Assembly (NCBI GenBank): GCA_018819225.1
Contig: JAHJQN010000005.1
Span: forward strand, 1-64,000
Source: Candidatus Micrarchaeota archaeon
Lineage (GTDB): Archaea; Micrarchaeota; Micrarchaeia; Norongarragalinales; SBBD01
Direction of reading: 5' to 3'
Length of the DNA: 64,000 nucleotides
The first letter of the stretch is position 1; each line of letters opens with the position of its first letter. The notes under the pieces were generated by a model. It did not search any database and was not told where the DNA came from. It saw nothing but the letters and a program-made list of their open reading frames with translations. Positions 2,795 through 12,475 of this stretch are shown here, in pieces. The position numbers and the translations under genes were made by a program.

Positions 2795-2845
2795 GAGGTT
2801 AATTAATGTATCGAAAATGAGTCAGGCAGTTGTACAACAAGCAAG

Positions 2846-2886
2846 GCGCCTATGGCGGGATTTGAACACCACGTACAGATGCCTTA
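2846..2886 (-). repeat. Degenerate copy of tRNA-Met 3' end (att-like site 1)
   Basis: gcgcctatggcgggatttgaacac matches 21/24 nt of gtgcctagggcgagatttgaacac at 12331; second tgcctta motif at 2880. Confidence 0.8.
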
Positions 2887-2905
2887 CTGAATTAAAACAA
2901 ACCGC

Positions 2906-3979
2906 TTAGGTTGGATTTTCAAATTGAAATGCAGATTTGTTCATCTTCATTATTTTTACCAGTGAGAGCATTACGGGGACTTCAACAAGGACTCCTACAA
3001 CGGTAGCCAAGGTTGCTCCAGAATTCATTCCGAATAATATTAGTGCAACGGCAACGGCAAGTTCAAAGAAGTTGCTTGCCCCAATGAATACGGAGGGAGC
3101 TGCTTCATTAAAGGGTATTTGGAGTTTTTTTGCTCCCAGGTATCCAATGAAAAAAACGAGATACGTTTGCAATATTAACGGAATTGCAATGAGCAGAATG
3201 TGCAACGGGTAATTGATTATCTTGTCCCCCTGGAAAATGAATATTAGAACTAATGTTACCAGTAAACCTGCAGGGGTAATCCACTCAATTTTTTTAATAA
3301 ATTGATTCTCGAGCCAATCCACGCCTTTTTTCTGAATAATGACGTGTCGGGTTACTGCTGCTAATAATAGAGGAATTCCAACGTAAAACAGAACCGATAG
3401 GAATATGGTGTCAAATGGAACTGGAAATTCAGTGGTTATTCCAAGGAGAAGCATACCTAATGGGGCAAATAAGACGAGGATGATGAGGTCATTGATGGAT
3501 ACTTGCACTAAAGCGTAGTTAATATTGGCTTTTGCAAGGGAAGTCCATACGAGCACCATGGCAGTGCATGGAGCTAGTCCGAGTAGTATCATTCCGGCTA
3601 TGTATTCCGTTTGAAGCGTCTCGGGAATAATCGATGAAAAGATGAGTCTCATAAACAGCCATGCTATTAGAGCCATAGTAAAGGGCTTGATAGCCCAGTT
3701 CACGATTATTGTTAGCCATAATGGCTTTACGTTCCTCTGGACGTTTAATACTTCATTGAAATTGATTTTGATCATTATAGGGTACATCATGACCAGAAGC
3801 ACGAATGCAACGGGTATGGAAACATTGGCTACCTCAAATTCTCCGAGCGAGGTGGCGAGCCCTGGGAAAAAGTATCCAATGCCGGTTCCAAGGATTATGC
3901 AAATGGCTACCCATAGTGTAAGGTATTTGCTGAAAAAGTCTAGTTCCTCTTGCGTTTGCCCCATTAATTCTTTAAGCAT
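2906..3979 (-). CDS. acr3: ACR3-family arsenite efflux transporter
   Basis: MMYP, VNWAIKPFTM, GLAPCTAMVLVW, GASNFFELAVAVA and GVLVEVPVML motifs; about 10 TM segments; AT-rich. Confidence 0.95.
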   Translation of the reverse strand: MLKELMGQTQEELDFFSKYLTLWVAICIILGTGIGYFFPGLATSLGEFEVANVSIPVAFVLLVMMYPIMIKINFNEVLNVQRNVKPLWLTIIVNWAIKPFTMALIAWLFMRLIFSSIIPETLQTEYIAGMILLGLAPCTAMVLVWTSLAKANINYALVQVSINDLIILVLFAPLGMLLLGITTEFPVPFDTIFLSVLFYVGIPLLLAAVTRHVIIQKKGVDWLENQFIKKIEWITPAGLLVTLVLIFIFQGDKIINYPLHILLIAIPLILQTYLVFFIGYLGAKKLQIPFNEAAPSVFIGASNFFELAVAVALILFGMNSGATLATVVGVLVEVPVMLSLVKIMKMNKSAFQFENPT

Positions 3980-3994
3980 TGAATATTAAAGAAG

Positions 3995-4035
3995 GTACCT
4001 AGGGCGAGCATTAAACGTGAAGTAACAATGCCCAA
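3995..4035 (-). repeat. Degenerate copy of tRNA-Met 3' end (att-like site 2)
   Basis: gtacctagggcgagcattaaac matches 18/22 nt of the tRNA 3' end; tgcccaa at 4029. Confidence 0.65.
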
Positions 4036-4073
4036 AAGTTTGTGTTTATAAAAGTAAATGGAGAAGCAGTAGT

Positions 4074-4277
4074 ATGGCTGTTAATTTCTCAAATAAAGCG
4101 TTAAGCAAAGTCTTATTTGGACTTGGTTTATTTTTCATTATTAGCTCTGCGATTTCATTAAATATATTAGGCGGCCCACCAATAGAACTTTTACTAGTAT
4201 TATTAGTATTAGCATTGCTTGCAATAATAATGGGCATCATTTATTCAAAAAAATCCGAAATTACAAATGGGCGTTGA
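4074..4277 (+). CDS. Small two-TM membrane protein
   Basis: 67 aa with two hydrophobic helices; GGAG upstream; very AT-rich; lies between two att-like sites. Confidence 0.6.
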   Translation: MAVNFSNKALSKVLFGLGLFFIISSAISLNILGGPPIELLLVLLVLALLAIIMGIIYSKKSEITNGR

Positions 4278-4289
4278 TAATAAATCAAT

Positions 4290-4332
4290 GTGCCTAGGGC
4301 GGGCGCGGAGACCTGGTCTGCGTGCCTAAGCA
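4290..4332 (-). repeat. Degenerate copy of tRNA-Met 3' end (att-like site 3) within an imperfect hairpin
   Basis: gtgcctagggcggg matches 13/14 nt of the tRNA 3' end; tgcctaa at 4323; ggcgcggagacc/ggtctgcgtgcc inverted repeat (10/12). Confidence 0.65.
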
Positions 4333-4538
4333 ACCTCGGAGACCGAAAAAAACGCGAAAGGAAGCGACTCGCATAGAGAAAACGAACGCAGTACTCAGGA
4401 AGCAACGGAAAGACTTAATGACAAGGATGACAAAGTTGACAAATACCGGGTCCAGAGGAAAGACCAAAAAAACCAGTGCCGTGGGTGATCGCTAAGCATG
4501 CCCCCCATACGTACACCTAGTAGAACAAGTTGCACGAT

Positions 4539-5444
4539 TCATTTTGTGGCAGGAAGGTCCAAGCCCCCAATATATTTTTCCAGTTTTTCTGCAAAGGATT
4601 GCAAGGCTTTCAAATCGGGCTTCTCAATGAAAACAGGATCAAACGTGGTTTGCACGGAGAGTTCCTGCAAGTGCTTTCCAAGATTCTCCATGTTCTTTCG
4701 GTATTCCTTTACGTATGCTGGCGTCTTCATTGCCAAAGCCATCTTAGCCCTGACCGCTTCAGCAGGAGCAACTCGGTAGAGGCTAGACCCTTCGACCATT
4801 TTATAAAGATCGAATAAATCCCGGGAGCGAGCCGGCTGGAGTCTTCGAGTCAATACCGCCCGGACTTTCTCAGCTCCAATCTCTTGAATCGAGTAACACG
4901 GCAATTCCAGAGACGAGAAGTACGCCTTGGCCAAGTGACCAAACATGGCTTCGAGCTCGCGCTCCTTGTCTTTTGGCACTTCAAGGCGTTTGAGCTTCAT
5001 TCTTTTCGCAGGAAACGCCAATCGCTCGTCAAAAGCAACCGTCACCTTGAGCTTTCCCCCGTTTTTCGGTGTGAGAAAGAAGTAGTTCATCACCTTGCCA
5101 CTGTGTGTTCCCGCGATACCGGTCTTTACCCGATCATGAAAATCCCATTGCAACCCGAGTCCAGCCATGAGTTTCCCGATGACGTTTTTCCTGAACGCGT
5201 GTTCCTTGATTTCCCCGTTCGCCCAAGTCAAATCAATGTCTTCACTGAACCGGAAATACCCGAGATAGGCCCTGACGAGGCATGTTCCACCCTTGAAAAC
5301 CAAATACCTTGATTCGGGAAAAGAGAAAATCTCCCGCAAAGAGTACGTAATCCAAATGTCCTTCTCGACAAGCCCTACGGGTAGCTTGCTGGAAGCCGCG
5401 ATGATTTCCGCGAGCTCACGCACTTTCGCGGGAGGGTACGTCAT
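4539..5444 (-). CDS. AbiEii/AbiGii-family nucleotidyltransferase toxin (type IV TA)
   Basis: VEKD, LVFKGGTCL, YFRFSEDIDL, AEKVRA and RDLFDL motifs. Confidence 0.92.
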   Translation of the reverse strand: MTYPPAKVRELAEIIAASSKLPVGLVEKDIWITYSLREIFSFPESRYLVFKGGTCLVRAYLGYFRFSEDIDLTWANGEIKEHAFRKNVIGKLMAGLGLQWDFHDRVKTGIAGTHSGKVMNYFFLTPKNGGKLKVTVAFDERLAFPAKRMKLKRLEVPKDKERELEAMFGHLAKAYFSSLELPCYSIQEIGAEKVRAVLTRRLQPARSRDLFDLYKMVEGSSLYRVAPAEAVRAKMALAMKTPAYVKEYRKNMENLGKHLQELSVQTTFDPVFIEKPDLKALQSFAEKLEKYIGGLDLPATK

Positions 5445-5445
5445 A

Positions 5446-6120
5446 TCAATCCTCGAAGAACCTTCTTAAAAAAATAGAGTACAGATTAGGATATTTCCGA
5501 ATGATCGTGCCAATTCGGTTTAACTGCCGGTCCCTGCCTCCGGCTTTATTTGAAACATCTTCCAATACGGCCTTGACGAACTCGCGCATCTTCTCATTGC
5601 GAGCCCCGAAATAGGCATAATCGACGATGGTTCTGCTGGGATCGCTGAACCGGATATGCCCTTTTTTTCTGATATGATAATCAAACGGGACTCCCGAAAG
5701 CTGCTTGAATTCGATATTCATTCCGGCAAAAGCTTTCCTATACCCCCTTATTCTTTTCTTGGTAATAACGGTAATCGTTGTTTGGGTTTGCTGTTCGGAT
5801 ATTCCCCCAACCTTCAGGGCAGTCGCGAGGCCAAAATACCAGTTCTTTTTCAGCTTGAGATTGCATGCTCTTGCCACGACATTAATGGCTTCTTCCTTAA
5901 TGGTTCCCAAATCACGCTCCTCTCTGTCTTTGACATAATAAACTCCTCGAAAAACGACGGGCACGATCGCCTCCGCGCGGGCAAGCCCCGCCTGAGCCGT
6001 ACTGAATTCAACGCCTGAGACCTTACACGCCGTCCTAATATGATCACTGGAAACAACCCGGTCATGCCTGGAAAGTAAAATGTTGTAAATTTTTCCCGCT
6101 TCGCTTTCCCAAAACGCCAT
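5446..6120 (-). CDS. AbiEi-like antitoxin / transcriptional regulator
   Basis: Directly upstream of AbiEii (1-nt gap); FRGVYY, YFGLATAL and SDPSRTIVD motifs. Confidence 0.8.
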   Translation of the reverse strand: MAFWESEAGKIYNILLSRHDRVVSSDHIRTACKVSGVEFSTAQAGLARAEAIVPVVFRGVYYVKDREERDLGTIKEEAINVVARACNLKLKKNWYFGLATALKVGGISEQQTQTTITVITKKRIRGYRKAFAGMNIEFKQLSGVPFDYHIRKKGHIRFSDPSRTIVDYAYFGARNEKMREFVKAVLEDVSNKAGGRDRQLNRIGTIIRKYPNLYSIFLRRFFED

Positions 6121-6242
6121 AGGGATACCTATTGAGTCCTTAAAACTACTAAATTGTTGAAATAATACCGTAATATAAGCCTTTTGGTTGCCATTTTCAA
6201 TGGAAACGCGGCGTAGTAACGCGCGACACGCTCCGCCGTTAC

Positions 6243-7541
6243 TTGAAGAAAATGGGCGCTCATTACGTCAAAGCCATTCTCGCGTACGAGGAAGCCGACT
6301 TGAAAAAACAGGCGGAATTCGCTCGCGATTTCCTCGCGATTTTACGAGGTAAAAACCGTGCCGTCGCCGTATTTTTTCAGGACGAAATGAGCGCCGAAAC
6401 GACGGCGCGAAAAGGCTACGGCTGGACGTTTGAAAAACGCTTGGTCGTCAGAGCGCCGCAAGCGGCGTGGGAAAAAGTGAACGCGTTCGGCGCCGTCAAC
6501 CCGTTTACAGGCGAAGTCGTCGAACTGGCGAGCGCGGACGCCAAAGCGCCCTCGTTCATCCGTTTGCTCCGCAAGCTCTTGATTCAACACCCGCGCAAGC
6601 GGGTGTTATTGTGTTTGGATAACTCGCGAGTGCACCACTCGCGGATGCTCCAAAAGTTTTTGGAAAAGCATCCGCGTCTGCAAGTGAAGTATCTTCCGGC
6701 ATACTCGCCGGAATTGAATCCGAAGGAATACTGGCACGCGTTCGTGAGGAAGAAACTGCTCAATAATCGGAGTTTTACGAGCGCCAGAGCAGTGGCGCTC
6801 GCGCTGAATCGTTTTGCCAGAAACACGCCGAAGGAGGTCGAAAAGGAAGTCTATGGAGACCAATCCGAGTTCTGCCGTGAATCCGACCGCGTTCGCAAAG
6901 AAGAACAAAGGGAAATCGAACGCCAGGAAGCCAAGGAAGAAGCCGAGCGTTTGAAGGAAGTCGAGCGCATAAAACGGAAAGAGCGCAAGGAACGCGAGAT
7001 GGCAGCAAAACAAGCGCTTTTAGAGGCCAAGCAGCCGTTGTTTGAAGGCGGCAATTGCATCCAAGAAAAGGGTTTATCGAAACGGCAAAAGGACCACTTG
7101 CTAAGCGAGGAATATTCTCGCATTAAGGTTAGTCCGTTTGGTGATTCTGGTGCGGCGTTTTATTGGGTTAAGCCACGTTGGCCTGAAAGCAAGGAACACG
7201 CCTTCTTCTGCTACCTCATCGAAGGCCTCGCAAAAAAACACGACGCCGAAGACATTACTTTGAACGTGAACGACGGCCCTGATATCGTATTCGAACACGA
7301 CAAAAGCACGTACGCCATTGAAGTAGAAACCGGGGGCAACTTAAGAAGAAACGAAAAATACTTGCAGAAAAAGTTTTACCTCAACGAAAGACATTACGAC
7401 CACTCCTTCGTCTTCGTAACCAGCAAAAAACTCAAGTACAAGTACGGCAAATACGCCCACGTCATAACCCGAGGAACCCTCAAAAAAACACTGAAACAAA
7501 TCTTCAACAAAAACAAGCAAACACCTTCAGATAGTTTATAG
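6243..7541 (+). CDS. 5'-truncated IS630-family DDE transposase fused in frame to a coiled coil and a PD-(D/E)XK nuclease-like domain
   Basis: FQDE, LDN and LPAYSPELNPKE catalytic motifs; only the end of the HTH remains upstream (TLRRYLKKMG); C-terminal GPDIVF...AIEVETG. Confidence 0.8.
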   Translation: MKKMGAHYVKAILAYEEADLKKQAEFARDFLAILRGKNRAVAVFFQDEMSAETTARKGYGWTFEKRLVVRAPQAAWEKVNAFGAVNPFTGEVVELASADAKAPSFIRLLRKLLIQHPRKRVLLCLDNSRVHHSRMLQKFLEKHPRLQVKYLPAYSPELNPKEYWHAFVRKKLLNNRSFTSARAVALALNRFARNTPKEVEKEVYGDQSEFCRESDRVRKEEQREIERQEAKEEAERLKEVERIKRKERKEREMAAKQALLEAKQPLFEGGNCIQEKGLSKRQKDHLLSEEYSRIKVSPFGDSGAAFYWVKPRWPESKEHAFFCYLIEGLAKKHDAEDITLNVNDGPDIVFEHDKSTYAIEVETGGNLRRNEKYLQKKFYLNERHYDHSFVFVTSKKLKYKYGKYAHVITRGTLKKTLKQIFNKNKQTPSDSL

Positions 7542-7692
7542 GCCAATAATATACATATATTATGGAGCGCTGTAGGCGGCAAATAACGAAAGCCACGTCA
7601 GAATACAAAAACACGATTTGCGCCAAATAATTTAAGGGATTGACCAGGAGACGATCACTGGCCCTTAAATTTAACGGCAAAAAACGCCAGGT

Positions 7693-8004
7693 TTGCGGTC
7701 GGGGTTCGGGAGCGAGTGCAAGCTCATGGTGTTCCACAGCAAGGCGTTCATGGGCTTCGAGGACGCGGACGTGGAGTGCATGGCCGGCGGGCTATTGGAC
7801 CACAGTTTCAAGGGCTTGGAGAAGCAATCGGAGCGCCTGCACAAAGCCTACAAGAAGCGGAAGGTCACGAAGCGGCGCCTGGCGAAGCTGCTGCTGAAGT
7901 TCGAGGATCTTGCTAAGTACGACAAGCGCGAGTTCCACTCGACGGCGAGGCTCGTGGCCCAGCAGAAGATGTTCGAATTCGAGAAGGAGCTCGCCAAGGA
8001 CTGA
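7693..8004 (+). CDS. Hypothetical basic helical protein (start may be ATG 7726)
   Basis: Strong GC3 codon bias in this frame; no family recognised. Confidence 0.55.
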   Translation: MRSGFGSECKLMVFHSKAFMGFEDADVECMAGGLLDHSFKGLEKQSERLHKAYKKRKVTKRRLAKLLLKFEDLAKYDKREFHSTARLVAQQKMFEFEKELAKD

Positions 8005-8015
8005 GCAAAGCCTGA

Positions 8016-9245
8016 TTAGCCGCTTAAAATGCTTACGAAAGGCGGCCAGCGCCAAAGTGAAAACGCGTTCTCGAAGAACGCTTCCACGGGAGCATAGAAC
8101 GCCTTGCTGGCGGAAACAGTCACGTTGTACAAGCCTTCAGGCAAGGGACGCAGCTCGCGAGGAGGCACCGCGCACGCATACGTAGCGTTTACCCCCTCAA
8201 CAGCCTTGCAGCCCACCCAAGCATACTCATGCGAAGCATTAAACGCCAAGTCAGCGCCCGAAACGCCTTCCCCGCACTCGTTGCCTAGAACCGCCTCGAA
8301 CTCCAAAGGCTCGTCCTTCGGATGCGGACCGCGCGGCTTCATTAGCGCGGGCTCCAGAATCGCCGTGATGTTGTACGAAACATGGGTCGAATTGGCGCTG
8401 AAATAGCAGCTTCCCTGGCTTTGCGTGAATTCGGTAAGCCAGAGCTGGTTTCCCACCTCGTACGAGCAGTCCGGGTTGAAGAGATACCGCACGTGTCCCG
8501 TGCCGTTCGTGAACGCGATCTGCGTTGCCGTGAAGTTATGACCGTCTTGAGTCAGGTGGAAGTACGCCTCGAAACCTGCTCCCAATGGCGTGTTCGTATC
8601 GTCATCCCAGATTCGAGCCGTTAGGTTGCGTGCGTCGAATCCTGGACGGAAAATGCTGACGTTGGCTCCGCTCACGATTTCAATGCGAATGTCGTCGGGC
8701 TCCAGCGAATACGGAATGACCGCCGTGCTCGCGTTCCAGCCGTCTCCGCTGGCGTTCCATTTGAACTCGCGAGCATTCTCACTCAAATATATGCCGCACG
8801 AACCAAACACGTACGGGAAGCTTACCGTGTCATTGAATCTCTCTTCCACGAAAGTCGAAAAAAGCAGTCTAAAGGGCAGGCCGGTCTGGTTGCGTTCCCA
8901 CAGCTGCACGGTCGCCCCGCCTTTTGGAGCCATGACGTCCACAGAATACGTGAACGTCTCTCCCCAACCCCCCGACTCGGGCGACACCAAAGGATTTTCC
9001 AACACGTAAGGAAGAAGCGCAGGCGAAATAATGGAACCAGCTAAAGAGGACTTTGAAAATAGAGTAGTAAGGCCAACGTCGTATGGAACTACGCTGTTTG
9101 CCAAGAACACTACGGCAAGCAGTGTAATTGCAAGAAAGCCATACTTCATGACGGAACGCCGCTTTATTCTTGCACCAAAAAAATTATAACCCTTACTACT
9201 ATGATGCCCTCCGTTATCTTTGCGGGATTTCGCAAAAGGTTTCAT
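8016..9245 (-). CDS. Secreted or surface glycoprotein with Ig-like beta domains (alternative start 9149)
   Basis: Hydrophobic signal MKYGFLAITLLAVVFLA; many N-x-S/T sequons; beta-rich. Confidence 0.75.
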   Translation of the reverse strand: MKPFAKSRKDNGGHHSSKGYNFFGARIKRRSVMKYGFLAITLLAVVFLANSVVPYDVGLTTLFSKSSLAGSIISPALLPYVLENPLVSPESGGWGETFTYSVDVMAPKGGATVQLWERNQTGLPFRLLFSTFVEERFNDTVSFPYVFGSCGIYLSENAREFKWNASGDGWNASTAVIPYSLEPDDIRIEIVSGANVSIFRPGFDARNLTARIWDDDTNTPLGAGFEAYFHLTQDGHNFTATQIAFTNGTGHVRYLFNPDCSYEVGNQLWLTEFTQSQGSCYFSANSTHVSYNITAILEPALMKPRGPHPKDEPLEFEAVLGNECGEGVSGADLAFNASHEYAWVGCKAVEGVNATYACAVPPRELRPLPEGLYNVTVSASKAFYAPVEAFFENAFSLWRWPPFVSILSG

Positions 9246-9247
9246 TT

Positions 9248-12004
9248 TTACGCGGCCGGAAGAACCAAGTGGAACACTTGGCTGGAAGTCACATTGACAA
9301 GAGAGCTGTTGAAGCCGTAGTCAGGAGACTTAATTCCCGATACATTGTGCGGCGTATAGCAAGTTAGATTGCTCTGATCCACACAGCCGTTCGTATAAGC
9401 GTAAGCGCCCGTTGCGATATACTCCGTAAGAGCAAACCAACCGGCAAGTCCGTTTGCGGTTGTGGTTGTTTGAATCATCGGTGTTGAAGACGTGGCATTC
9501 ATGATATTCACCGATGCAGAATCGATCGGGCTTTCGCTAGAGTTTGTAACGTTAACCATCAACCAATACCCTACCGTCAAGTTTTGGGTTCCGCCAGCCC
9601 ACGACACCGAACTCCTGTTGAAGGAAACATTCAAAAATGAAATGTCCCAGACGCCAGTATCTAACCGGACGTCCGCATAGTTATCATCACAATCAGATGA
9701 GCAGGCTATAATCGTATCATTCGCAAAGGTGTGGTTGGACGCGGTACTCAACTGGAGGCCGTATTTTTTTCCTGTCCAAGTATTATTAATCATGGAATTG
9801 TTTGTATAGATGGTATGGTTTCCAACCAAGTGCAATCCGGCGCCTCCAGCTTGCACTACCCTATTGTTTTCTATTACGCTATTCCCGGTTGTTTGTAACA
9901 CTACCGCAGATCGGGCGGTATTAGTTGTTACATTGAACGTGTTATTGATTATTCGCAATCCTATACTGTCGGTAGAAAACAGGCCTGGTGAAGATGCCTG
10001 TGTTGCTGCAATAGTAATTTGATTGTTTTCAATCAAGGAGTTTGTTGCGGTAAGCGCAATGCCGATATTCAGTATGTTTACTGGATTAAGTTGTTGAATC
10101 TTGCAGTTTTTTACTTCTATATTAGAAACACTAAATGCTGTTACGCCATAAAAAGAGCCGCCATCGAGGTTTGCGGTCGAAAAATGAATCGTATGGCCGT
10201 TACAGTCGAGTTTTAGATCGGATGCCGCAACTGTAAAGCAGGTACCGGTGGAAGAGACGTCGTTTTTAAGAGTATAATCGCCATAAAGCGTGCCGCACGA
10301 GGACATCCATTCGGAGGTGAAGTTGACGCCGCTCGGCTTCGGTTTGGAGTCATAGTACAATTGGTTGGTTGTGCTGGCGGAGGGCTTCCAGCTGATGCTT
10401 ACTTTGATCGTGGAATTGAAGCGGAACACGTGGCCTTCTATAGGAATGCCTGAGTAGGTAAACTTCTGAATCGTGGAGTTCCAAGTCTCTGCCGAAAAGG
10501 CTTTGGAAACTTGCCAGATGTCAGTGCCGTCCTGCTGCCGTTCCGTGACCGTGATGTTGACTTCCTGCGTGGTAGAGGCATCCGAAGAACCCCATATCGT
10601 AATGGAAGCGTCCGAGGTTGCATTCAAGCCTTCCGACAAGAGCGGGTATAAGTAGAACAAGGTCGGGTCCGACCACTGGCTCGCGGTTACGGACACGTCG
10701 AGCACATCGTCCACACTGTCTTGCGGGGGAACGGAGTCCATGAGATTGCGCGTGTTTTCATTCACGTTTGTGACGTTCTGCGGAGAAGCGTTATGGAGGT
10801 AGTAGGGAGGCACTTGAGTAGGCGCGTACGTCACGTTTAAGACCGGGCCCGTAGAGGTATAGGGTTCCAGGCCGCGGACACGAACTTCCGCGTAGTGCTT
10901 GGTCTGATTCGTCCAGTTCTCGACGTCGCTCTTCAGCCGGTAGTCCGTAAATCCGTCGAGATCCAGATTGGAAACCGCCACGGTCTTATTGTGGTAGCCA
11001 TTCGCGTTCCAGTCGGCGTCGAACAGCCAGCCTTCGGCGGTCGTGCAGGCCTCCCAGTCCGACGTATCCAGTGCGCCTTCCAGGCAGTCATGACCTGAAG
11101 TCACGTTGAGGTTTATTGCGTCGCCGTAGGTCTTGGAAACGTAGAACCAAAGCGCTGCATCCAACAATTCGGTTCCCGCCGGAATCTCCGACGTGTCGAA
11201 CGAGTAATAGACGCGGTAGTTGTTAAAATCAACATCATGAGGGCAGAATGCATTTTGTGTGAGCGCCTCTACGCCGAGCTTGGCCATCCCACTGAGGTTG
11301 TTCGACGTCATCGAAGTAACGGGAACGCAGTCTTCCCCCGTATAATCATACACCACGGTCTGCCGGATGTACCCGTCCCTAACGTTTCCTTGGAGCTTGA
11401 AAATCGGGTCTAAAAACAGGGCGTCTTGCTCTTGAACGCCCGAGACCACGAACCCCGTTGAATCCACGGAGGAAAGCGGAAACCCCGAAGCCGGCAAATC
11501 GGTCAAGTCGAGCATGGCGTCTTCCTTGAAGTACAGCACCTCGCCTTCCGAACGAATTTCGTGGGCTTCAATCCCCTGCATGGACATGATTTTCATGCCC
11601 GCCGCCTCCAAACGGTTCCGAAGCCCTGCAGGAATATTTGAAAGCGTTAACGCGAACTTCCAATTTTTCCCTTTCGTGAGGTCTATGCCTCCCTCAACTC
11701 CCGGCCAGGCTTCCTGAAGTTGGGCTAGCGACATTTGCTCGCCACCCACCACGAAAACGTACTCAAATCTGACGGAGTACGTGGGCGCACGGAACAAGAG
11801 TTCCCCGTTTGCATATACCAACCCATACACATCGGAAAAAGCCTGCCAGCTTCCTTCATGAAAAACATTAACCGGATAGGAATACAGGGTAAGCGCATGG
11901 GAGCTGCCAGCAAGCTCGGGTTCATCAGCAGTTGCAGAAATGGGTTCCGCGCCAACCCAAGCACTGACAACTAGCACCATAAAAATAGCGTAAAACAACC
12001 GCAT
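9248..12004 (-). CDS. Large secreted surface protein with DNRLRE-like and right-handed beta-helix (NosD-like) domains
   Basis: Start MRLFYAIF at 12004 after a GGGGGTGA RBS. FDTSEIP...LDAALWFY, L..D....GTCF.....LDCNGH and IENN repeats; paralogous to 55782-60341. Confidence 0.85.
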   Translation of the reverse strand: MRLFYAIFMVLVVSAWVGAEPISATADEPELAGSSHALTLYSYPVNVFHEGSWQAFSDVYGLVYANGELLFRAPTYSVRFEYVFVVGGEQMSLAQLQEAWPGVEGGIDLTKGKNWKFALTLSNIPAGLRNRLEAAGMKIMSMQGIEAHEIRSEGEVLYFKEDAMLDLTDLPASGFPLSSVDSTGFVVSGVQEQDALFLDPIFKLQGNVRDGYIRQTVVYDYTGEDCVPVTSMTSNNLSGMAKLGVEALTQNAFCPHDVDFNNYRVYYSFDTSEIPAGTELLDAALWFYVSKTYGDAINLNVTSGHDCLEGALDTSDWEACTTAEGWLFDADWNANGYHNKTVAVSNLDLDGFTDYRLKSDVENWTNQTKHYAEVRVRGLEPYTSTGPVLNVTYAPTQVPPYYLHNASPQNVTNVNENTRNLMDSVPPQDSVDDVLDVSVTASQWSDPTLFYLYPLLSEGLNATSDASITIWGSSDASTTQEVNITVTERQQDGTDIWQVSKAFSAETWNSTIQKFTYSGIPIEGHVFRFNSTIKVSISWKPSASTTNQLYYDSKPKPSGVNFTSEWMSSCGTLYGDYTLKNDVSSTGTCFTVAASDLKLDCNGHTIHFSTANLDGGSFYGVTAFSVSNIEVKNCKIQQLNPVNILNIGIALTATNSLIENNQITIAATQASSPGLFSTDSIGLRIINNTFNVTTNTARSAVVLQTTGNSVIENNRVVQAGGAGLHLVGNHTIYTNNSMINNTWTGKKYGLQLSTASNHTFANDTIIACSSDCDDNYADVRLDTGVWDISFLNVSFNRSSVSWAGGTQNLTVGYWLMVNVTNSSESPIDSASVNIMNATSSTPMIQTTTTANGLAGWFALTEYIATGAYAYTNGCVDQSNLTCYTPHNVSGIKSPDYGFNSSLVNVTSSQVFHLVLPAA

Positions 12005-12331
12005 ACCTTTCACCCCCTCAGGAAGATGAAAGAAAGCAGCACAGCCTCCTATAAAAAGTTTGTGATGGCGTGGCTCCGGAATCCCAAACCACACTATATC
12101 TACCGCATTAAATAAATCCTATTGCGTCCGAGCTCTTTCTTTTCTTTATCCATCCAAATCGAGTTATCGATTATAAGCTTTGGTCCGAAACGAATCTTCT
12201 TTCGTCTCCTGCCAAACGGAGCAGCGATTAAAAAGACTGGCCCGGTTATTGGATGCGGACATGCGGCGTTTGCTTTCGTGCCCGGCGAGTATGTTGGGTT
12301 TGCGAGGAGAGGAACGTAGACGGGGTCTGAG

Positions 12332-12475
12332 TGCCTAGGGCGAGATTTGAACACGCGACCTCCAGATTTCACGAAGAAATCATTTGTTTAGTCATTGCCC
12401 TATAACGCGGGCTCTTTACTCATGAAGATTCGATCTTTATGAGTCTGGCGCTCTAACCAACTGAGCTACCTAGGC
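12332..12475 (-). tRNA. tRNA-Met(CAT), probably elongator, with a 70-nt anticodon-loop intron (12368-12437)
   Basis: GCCTAGG/CCTAGGC acceptor stem, D arm GCTC/GAGC, anticodon stem CCAGA/TCTGG with CT-CAT-A, T loop TTCAAAT. G1-C72 argues against the initiator. Confidence 0.92.

Follow-up and report, generated by a model that had tools for sequence, protein, structure and literature searches.

Integrase-less units in tandem behind a tRNA(CAU) gene of a micrarchaeal genome point to serial integration at the tRNA 3' end

The first 64 kb of one contig (JAHJQN010000005.1, here C3) of a Candidatus Micrarchaeota archaeon genome, the stretch that we analyzed and refer to as the window, contain a tRNA(CAU) gene followed downstream by three degenerate, same-orientation copies of its 3' end, which set off compact units of 1149 bp (unit 1, the most distal), 295 bp (unit 2), and 8041 bp (unit 3, next to the tRNA). 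The copies are attachment (att)-type duplications of the tRNA 3' end, and family and profile scans found no recombination or transfer genes in any unit. We consider it probable, at roughly 0.6, that the array arose by serial site-specific integration at the T-loop/3' end of the tRNA, leaving integrase-less units that resemble the cis-mobilizable elements (CIMEs) and microCIMEs of streptococci, a history of accretion and decay. An earlier note on this DNA had also read the copies as att-type duplications delimiting compact units that lack an integrase of their own, a reading that our analysis bears out and for which we find a similar layout at other tRNAs. The note had gone on to propose an integron-like platform; as laid out below, the locus is a known kind of genomic island and not a new integron-like machine. 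The genome comprises 1.37 Mb in 8 contigs and is rated 90% complete.

Copies of the tRNA 3' end form one family of boundaries

The tRNA(CAU) gene lies on the minus strand at 12332..12475 (Rfam RF00005, 57 bits; ARAGORN -i) and is called as Met, with Ile2 identity possible; it is the single tRNA that Rfam reports within the range of the array, at 12332-12475. Its intron, ~70-72 nt long, interrupts the gene at the canonical position 37/38 (roughly 12367-12438), and many tRNAs of this genome bear introns when ARAGORN is run with introns allowed. Default ARAGORN calls no tRNA in the window, whereas the intron-aware run calls the tRNA-Met, so the default miss reflects the long intron and not the absence of the gene. 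Since the 3' end of the tRNA faces lower coordinates, positions 2846-12331 are downstream of the gene. The attachment core consists of the last ~24 nt of the gene (12332-12355), from the T-loop to the discriminator.

Searching the window for GYRCCTAKGGCGRG with at most 1 mismatch gave matches only at 2846, 3995, 4290, and 12331, all on the plus strand; 0.16 matches are expected, and 0 of 100 shuffles attained 4. The three same-orientation tail copies of the earlier note were thus recovered, along with its hand-counted identities to the tRNA tail of 21/24 (2846), 18/22 (3995), and 13/14 (4290). For a 13-nt core with at most 1 mismatch, the calculated chance of occurrence within 10 kb is ~0.006 per core. 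The copy at 2846 is similar from the T-loop through to the discriminator, and this block is the one that, according to the integrase sublocation classes reportedly set out by Williams in 2002, is expected from a crossover in the T-loop.

The resemblance among the copies continues past the tRNA end, where 22 nt common to all three contain 9 invariant columns (P = 2e-5 against shuffles); this segment is missing from the present flank of the tRNA gene itself. The boundaries are therefore homologous repeats of roughly 60 nt, which align as an upstream arm (GGCA, a few bases, then AC), a tRNA-derived core, and the 22-nt flank, and homology over this length, flank included, identifies them as one att family and not as chance matches. 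When a profile of the ~60-nt boundary was run against the whole genome with nhmmer, it found only the three boundaries and the tRNA. Boundary 1, the most distal, occupies 2826..2884 on the minus strand (core 2847-2869, flank 2825-2846, TGCCTTA at 2880-2886; nhmmer E 1.5e-12). Boundary 2 occupies 3976..4033 on the same strand (core 3996-4016, flank 3974-3995, TGCCCAA at 4029-4035; E 6.5e-11), and its flank overlaps the start codon of the acr3 gene described below. Boundary 3, also on the minus strand, runs over 4270..4328 (core 4291-4303, 12/13; flank 4269-4290; TGCCTAA at 4323-4329; E 2e-10); inside it are a tandem doublet of 32 nt and a hairpin (fold z -2.5). Neither boundary 1 (z +0.5) nor boundary 2 (z +1.05) folds better than shuffles on either strand, and the boundaries have no Rfam match. 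All are worn, with 1-3 mismatches in 13-24 nt and arms that are only about half identical.

The second motif that the earlier note had placed beyond each copy, TGCCYWA, does occur at 2880, 4029, and 4323, at the claimed offsets of 34, 34, and 33 from the tail copies. Its strength is modest: the shared offset reaches P ~0.008 in a post-hoc test (any 7-nt window, at least 5 invariant columns, a shift of 1 allowed), and TGCCYWA as such shows no enrichment across the window (25 matches against 19.9 expected). We regard the arm motif as a suggestive signal, not a strong one. It looks as if it ends a second tandem tail copy, more decayed and 32-34 nt upstream, in boundary 3 and probably in boundary 1. 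At the tRNA-Met of the relative G001 (L031:2490-2560, on its contig C57), the last ~9 nt and ~15 nt of flank are repeated 34 nt downstream, a spacing with the same period as the tail doublets inside the boundaries of the window. A U-U mismatch interrupts the T-stem of the tRNA at 12332-12475, where boundary copies 1 and 3 instead have CCCGC, a sequence that would pair normally; the tail version kept in the boundary copies may be older than the present one, or foreign.

Tail copies and hairpin modules occur behind many tRNA genes

We searched 15 kb on each side of 34 tRNA genes, on both strands, for copies of each gene's own last 13-22 nt. Downstream same-orientation copies numbered 21, compared with 3, 4, and 3 in the control classes, where several of the matches are other tRNAs; a stricter survey gave 17 compared with 0, 1, and 2. 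Arrays on the kilobase scale are also present at tRNA-Thr(GGT), tRNA-Ser(CGA), and tRNA-Arg(TCG). The array at tRNA-Thr(GGT) (C2:332082-335506; L064:183-3607) consists of three units closed by tail copies, one with a 695-aa DUF4185 protein and two of ~0.6 kb that hold exactly one ParE-type toxin-antitoxin pair each (in one a ParE toxin and a 64-aa partner, in the other a ParE toxin and an RHH antitoxin); a 27-nt arm, 25/27 identical, is common to two of its boundaries. A GCTTTGCAC-like arm is shared by the Thr, Arg, and Ser arrays. We rejected an arm common to the arrays of all these tRNAs, as the Met arms do not rise above the shuffle null in comparison with the Thr/Arg/Ser arm.

A second kind of tail copy accompanies a hairpin module of ~36 nt, TTTGGTCGAGCTTTCTT-loop-AAGAAAGGTCGTTCGGAATCC, which is followed by a copy of the neighboring tRNA's own last 12-20 nt and lies 43-118 nt behind at least 9 different tRNA genes (C1:145601, C1:167954, C2:102805, C3:87760, C5:71290, C7:14811, and C7:91821, together with modules at C2:202399-202424, L068:1244-1269, and C2:202656-202684, L068:1501-1529). 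That the tail copies vary with the tRNA and the hairpin does not suggests duplicative insertion or a process related to introns; RNA folds of the modules revealed no clear splicing motif. None of the tRNA-Met boundaries contains a copy of the conserved hairpin. Among 68 genomes of the order, the hairpin pattern matched once, in this genome, with a pattern that fixed the loop length too tightly to be informative about relatives. The hairpin also occurs in 47-nt tandem arrays at two contig ends (C1:268175-268297 and C6:34-156), which probably caused the assembly breaks there; the intron of tRNA-Thr(CGT) harbors a related copy (L067:7915-7940), and one more lies downstream of the 16S rRNA start, at C3:97489-97518.

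The only tyrosine recombinase gene is truncated and lies at another tRNA

No open reading frame (ORF) in 2384-12372 matches a Pfam integrase, and PF00589, searched against the genome in six frames, gave a sole match, outside the window on another contig (C2:97226-98146; L066:3727-4647). The end of this gene falls within the 3' end of tRNA-Ser(CGA), downstream of which two tail copies lie at 2.0 and 2.9 kb. It lacks about 115-135 N-terminal residues, its alignment starting at residue 115-137 of ten homologues (400-470 aa) from relatives. The earlier note had supposed a recombinase acting in trans; this N-terminally truncated gene is the only tyrosine recombinase that the search found. Full-length members of the family, 400-470 aa long, are patchily distributed at 0-4 copies per relative genome, and adjoin tRNA-Thr(GGT) in G001 (where the frame is 470 aa) and tRNA-Leu in G022 and G013. 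Because the family is patchy, multi-copy, and tRNA-adjacent, it represents a mobile-element integrase and not a housekeeping Xer, and its N-terminally truncated member in the tRNA-Ser(CGA) array is direct evidence of such elements decaying in this genome.

Profiles of SSV-type integrases and serine recombinases gave no match above cut-off in the genome. We considered and rejected an SSV-type split integrase: among the ORFs that read through att copies, a 90-aa ORF and a 948-aa protein (both described below) have no integrase signal. A casposon origin of the duplications was likewise set aside, as the genome's only Cas1 adjoins a probable Cas2 and a CRISPR (clustered regularly interspaced short palindromic repeats) array. 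That array, at the start of C2 (L063:52-679 and L063:1064-3036), has a ~37-nt repeat with a ~73-nt period and adjoins a 99-aa ORF, probably Cas2, and a 558-aa ORF containing Cas1.

The units carry foreign, mostly compact cargo

Unit 1 holds, as the earlier note had said, acr3, encoding a full-length ACR3 arsenite efflux transporter (2906..3979, minus strand; TIGR00832 2.7e-113; PF01758) that reaches to within about 20-45 nt of both unit boundaries. The best homologues, 75-80% identical, are found in DPANN, Methanosarcina, and Patescibacteria, and the contexts of acr3 in DPANN genomes are many and unrelated, the gene standing alone or linked to arsR. In unit 2, the 67-aa membrane gene of the earlier note is present as an orphan ORF whose translation has two hydrophobic stretches (4074..4277, plus strand), but as a gene it is unverified: a search of 400 genomes from the phylum yielded borderline matches only, none of them a credible homologue, and an alternative 64-aa ORF runs at 4046-4240 on the minus strand, the strand of the public gene call (63 aa). 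Unit 2 may be gene-less, and hence microCIME-like. GC content is 40-42% for units 1 and 2 (0.40-0.42 at 3001-4500), compared with ~51% for the genome.

Unit 3 encodes, by family match, an abortive-infection type IV toxin-antitoxin pair, made up of the AbiEii toxin (4539-5444, minus strand; PF08843 3.3e-23; PADLOC AbiEii 8.7e-37) and the AbiEi antitoxin (5446-6120, minus strand; PADLOC AbiEi 7.9e-23). Next to it lies an IS630-family DDE chimera (6243..7541, plus strand; PF13358 1.4e-25; NF033545 1.6e-34) whose residues 1-191 correspond to profile positions 105-294, that is, a DDE domain without its N-terminal part, fused to ~240 unrelated residues; we read it as a mark of internal rearrangement or decay of the unit. 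The rest of the unit encodes a 409-aa protein (8016-9245, minus strand; 377 aa in the public call) with no family assignment and the 948-aa protein (9248-12094, minus strand), which has a weak NosD-like beta-helix signal (TIGR04247, at 7e-4 only). Neither protein has a Pfam, PHROG, PADLOC, or PDB match, and neither resembles a recombinase or replication protein.

The 90-aa ORF (12100..12372, minus strand) starts inside the tRNA and is probably not a gene. The first ~75 nt of it that lie past the tRNA resemble the tRNA-Met flank of G001. A 709-kb public contig of the same organism let us follow the DNA left of boundary 1 past the left end of the window (L037:10642-20411). It has a 136-aa ORF there, proteins of 855 and 882 aa assigned to no family, and one of at least 1980 aa in which RHS/YD-repeat signals are faint; over 10 kb on that side there are no more tail copies of tRNA-Met.

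The array in relatives and public collections

Adjacency of the tRNA to a PAP2 gene is kept in the family relatives G001, G005, G006, G007, G009, and G010, and no unit gene is present at the tRNA-Met locus of family relatives. The 709-kb contig, identical over 21 kb and from the same assembly, is the sole other record with the proteins of the locus; exact-protein look-ups for a second strain returned this assembly only, the genus being represented by a single species genome, and a search of Joint Genome Institute (JGI) metagenome contigs with the PAP2 protein found no relative. A strict pattern of the boundaries had 0 matches in ~185,000 species genomes and in JGI metagenome contigs; a looser pattern had 4, in unrelated organisms, which we take as chance.

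We also looked for acr3 as an att-flanked cassette elsewhere and rejected the idea: in other Micrarchaeota, similarity breaks off within the ORF, which no tRNA-like repeats flank, and homologues at 70% DNA identity share neither flanks nor tRNA-like repeats. An attempt to set the limits of the island by synteny failed as well. The Lon_C gene that follows tRNA-Met in genus g4 sits here on another contig, among housekeeping genes, so that synteny is broken and gives no boundary.

Serial integration weighed against its alternatives

The sequence of events that we favor would begin with mobile elements of one att family recombining serially with the T-loop-to-3'-end segment of tRNA(CAU), through a tyrosine integrase of the kind still found beside tRNA genes in relatives. 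Each event would restore the tRNA and move a tail copy, with the element arms attached to it, further downstream, and the remains would be units of 8.0, 0.3, and 1.15 kb from the tRNA outward, devoid of recombination genes and separated by ~60-nt hybrid att sites. Such units would be inert alone and remobilized only by an arriving integrase-bearing element with matching sites; the cargo retained in a streamlined genome, arsenite efflux and the AbiE toxin-antitoxin pair, would have been kept by selection or addiction. We favor this account because same-orientation copies number 4 where 0.16 are expected, copy 1 extends from the T-loop to the discriminator, and the boundaries are homologous over ~60 nt; because GC content is 40-42% against ~51% and tail copies are biased genome-wide; because a truncated integrase lies at tRNA-Ser(CGA), full-length integrases of relatives lie beside tRNAs, and unit 3 contains the IS630 chimera; and because the smallest units are the most distal, as in CIMEs and microCIMEs (PMC7563491). 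Several observations weigh against it. Since acr3 nearly fills unit 1 and the 295-bp unit keeps both of its arms, random internal deletion is not an obvious source of these units, and we found no larger relative of units 1 and 2 from which they could derive by deletion. Core similarity does not drop steadily from the tRNA outward. The flank now next to the tRNA is unlike the common boundary flank and resembles that of G001, so an order with the newest unit next to the tRNA would need an extra assumption, either that unit 3 came from a different type of element or that G001 has a related arm. A tblastn search with 10 full-length integrases of relatives found nothing in C3 and no fragment in or next to the array, and no intact element with the boundary arms was found in the species genomes or metagenomes searched. 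As to whether the units became small or were so by nature, worn boundaries, the truncated integrase, the IS chimera, and the lack of an active recombinase and of matching sites elsewhere argue for decay from putative larger elements; tight packing, intact genes, preserved arms, and the lack of integrase debris argue for units that were small from the start.

That the units were born small, as minimal cassettes of a gene or operon plus a ~60-nt site shuffled at the tRNA in an integron-like manner by the recombinase of a transient element or virus, is a doubtful alternative that nonetheless deserves a hearing. It would explain why the units are compact with intact genes (acr3 is full length in 1149 bp), why every tRNA-Met boundary retains its core and its two arms, and why the array has no integrase remnant; the one-pair, ~0.6-kb units at tRNA-Thr(GGT) and the lone or arsR-linked acr3 of many unrelated DPANN contexts speak for it too. 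It fares less well with a 90% complete genome that has no intact integrase, with decayed boundaries that do not suggest recent activity and of which 1 and 2 have no attC-like fold, with acr3 homologues that share no flanks or tRNA-like repeats at 70% DNA identity, with the absence of the boundary pattern from ~185,000 species genomes and JGI metagenomes, and with a tRNA-proximal unit that is 8 kb long and composite, not minimal. A broader version, in which a visiting tyrosine integrase would capture born-small cassettes at T-loop sites throughout the genome, making the tRNAs a distributed integron-like capture system with the hairpin modules as its empty form, strikes us as unlikely. The earlier note had argued that units too small to encode an integrase must be cassettes inserted in trans; this does not follow, as small, decayed, att-flanked units are known (PMC7563491).

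We think it improbable that the copies arose without any recombinase, by duplication of gene ends through the hairpin-module process or by local tandem duplication, with foreign genes landing between the copies later. In its favor, hairpin modules with tRNA-specific tails lie behind at least 9 tRNAs, and tail doublets spaced 32-34 nt apart are found immediately after the tRNA-Met of G001 as well as in boundary 3 and probably boundary 1. However, the conserved hairpin is missing from the Met boundaries, the units have unrelated contents whose composition departs from that of the genome, which is easier to reconcile with insertion than with duplication, and an integrase of the right family is present in the analogous tRNA-Ser array. 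Chance similarity, for which only the shortness of copy 3 (13/14) could be cited, is refuted by the shuffles (0/100 with 4 matches), the ~0.006 probability of a 13-nt core within 10 kb, the flank (P = 2e-5), and the genome-wide bias. Serial integration followed by decay remains the account that we prefer.

Relation to known systems and implications

In streptococci, CIMEs of 1.2-13 kb and microCIMEs of 130-220 bp are integrase-less, att-flanked, decayed derivatives of larger elements, and site-specific accretion and mobilization in cis proceed as in the ICESt3 type of accretion-mobilization (PMC7563491). The tRNA-Met array shares with them att sites on both sides of units that lack recombination and transfer genes, a tandem arrangement at the 3' end of a housekeeping gene, size classes with cargo and without genes, metal-resistance cargo, and the position of the most decayed units farthest out (PMC7563491). 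It differs in belonging to a DPANN archaeon, in targeting a tRNA T-loop/3' end, and in having no integrase-bearing partner in the array or genome; an origin from larger elements would be an inference here, and conjugation machinery is not expected.

The tycheposon islands of Prochlorococcus, which feature tandem integration, partial tRNAs, and fragmented integrases (10.1101/2020.12.28.424599), offer a second parallel. Here too, the genome is streamlined, islands adjoin a few of its tRNA genes, older elements would be pushed outward, and the cargo is adaptive or defensive, but tycheposons have integrases, replication modules, and experimentally demonstrated mobility, whereas the present units lack integrases. 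Integration of the SSV and pNOB8 types at tRNA genes is familiar in archaea. Archaeal integrated elements at tRNA genes show tandem integration and tRNA fragments (PMC9897764; PMC6563490), and they resemble our array in the tRNA 3' direct repeat at the far end and in tandem growth by re-use of the site, tyrosine integrases being the enzymes there; they measure 9-23 kb or more and usually carry an integrase, in contrast to units of 0.3-8 kb without one. Judged as a tRNA-targeting element, the locus has a direct repeat downstream of an intact tRNA and patchy cargo of foreign composition, and has no integrase inside.

Integrons (IntI, attI, and attC cassettes) have been reported in archaeal metagenome-assembled genomes as well, and a row of small one-gene or toxin-antitoxin units between short recombination sites does recall them. 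We found no integron-specific feature at the locus, however: no IntI-type gene or other recombinase adjoins the array, there is no attI, and the boundaries are derived from a tRNA and mostly lack the imperfect palindromes of attC sites, only boundary 3 having a hairpin.

How DPANN archaea, host-dependent and with tiny genomes, gain adaptive genes is poorly known. At this locus, arsenite resistance and the AbiE pair would have entered by integration targeted to a tRNA. The mechanism itself is ordinary, and the more interesting question is whether units this small move as such. Among the ~35 tRNA genes that we examined, 12 or more bear tail-copy scars, which makes tRNA genes the main visible entry points for foreign DNA in this genome.

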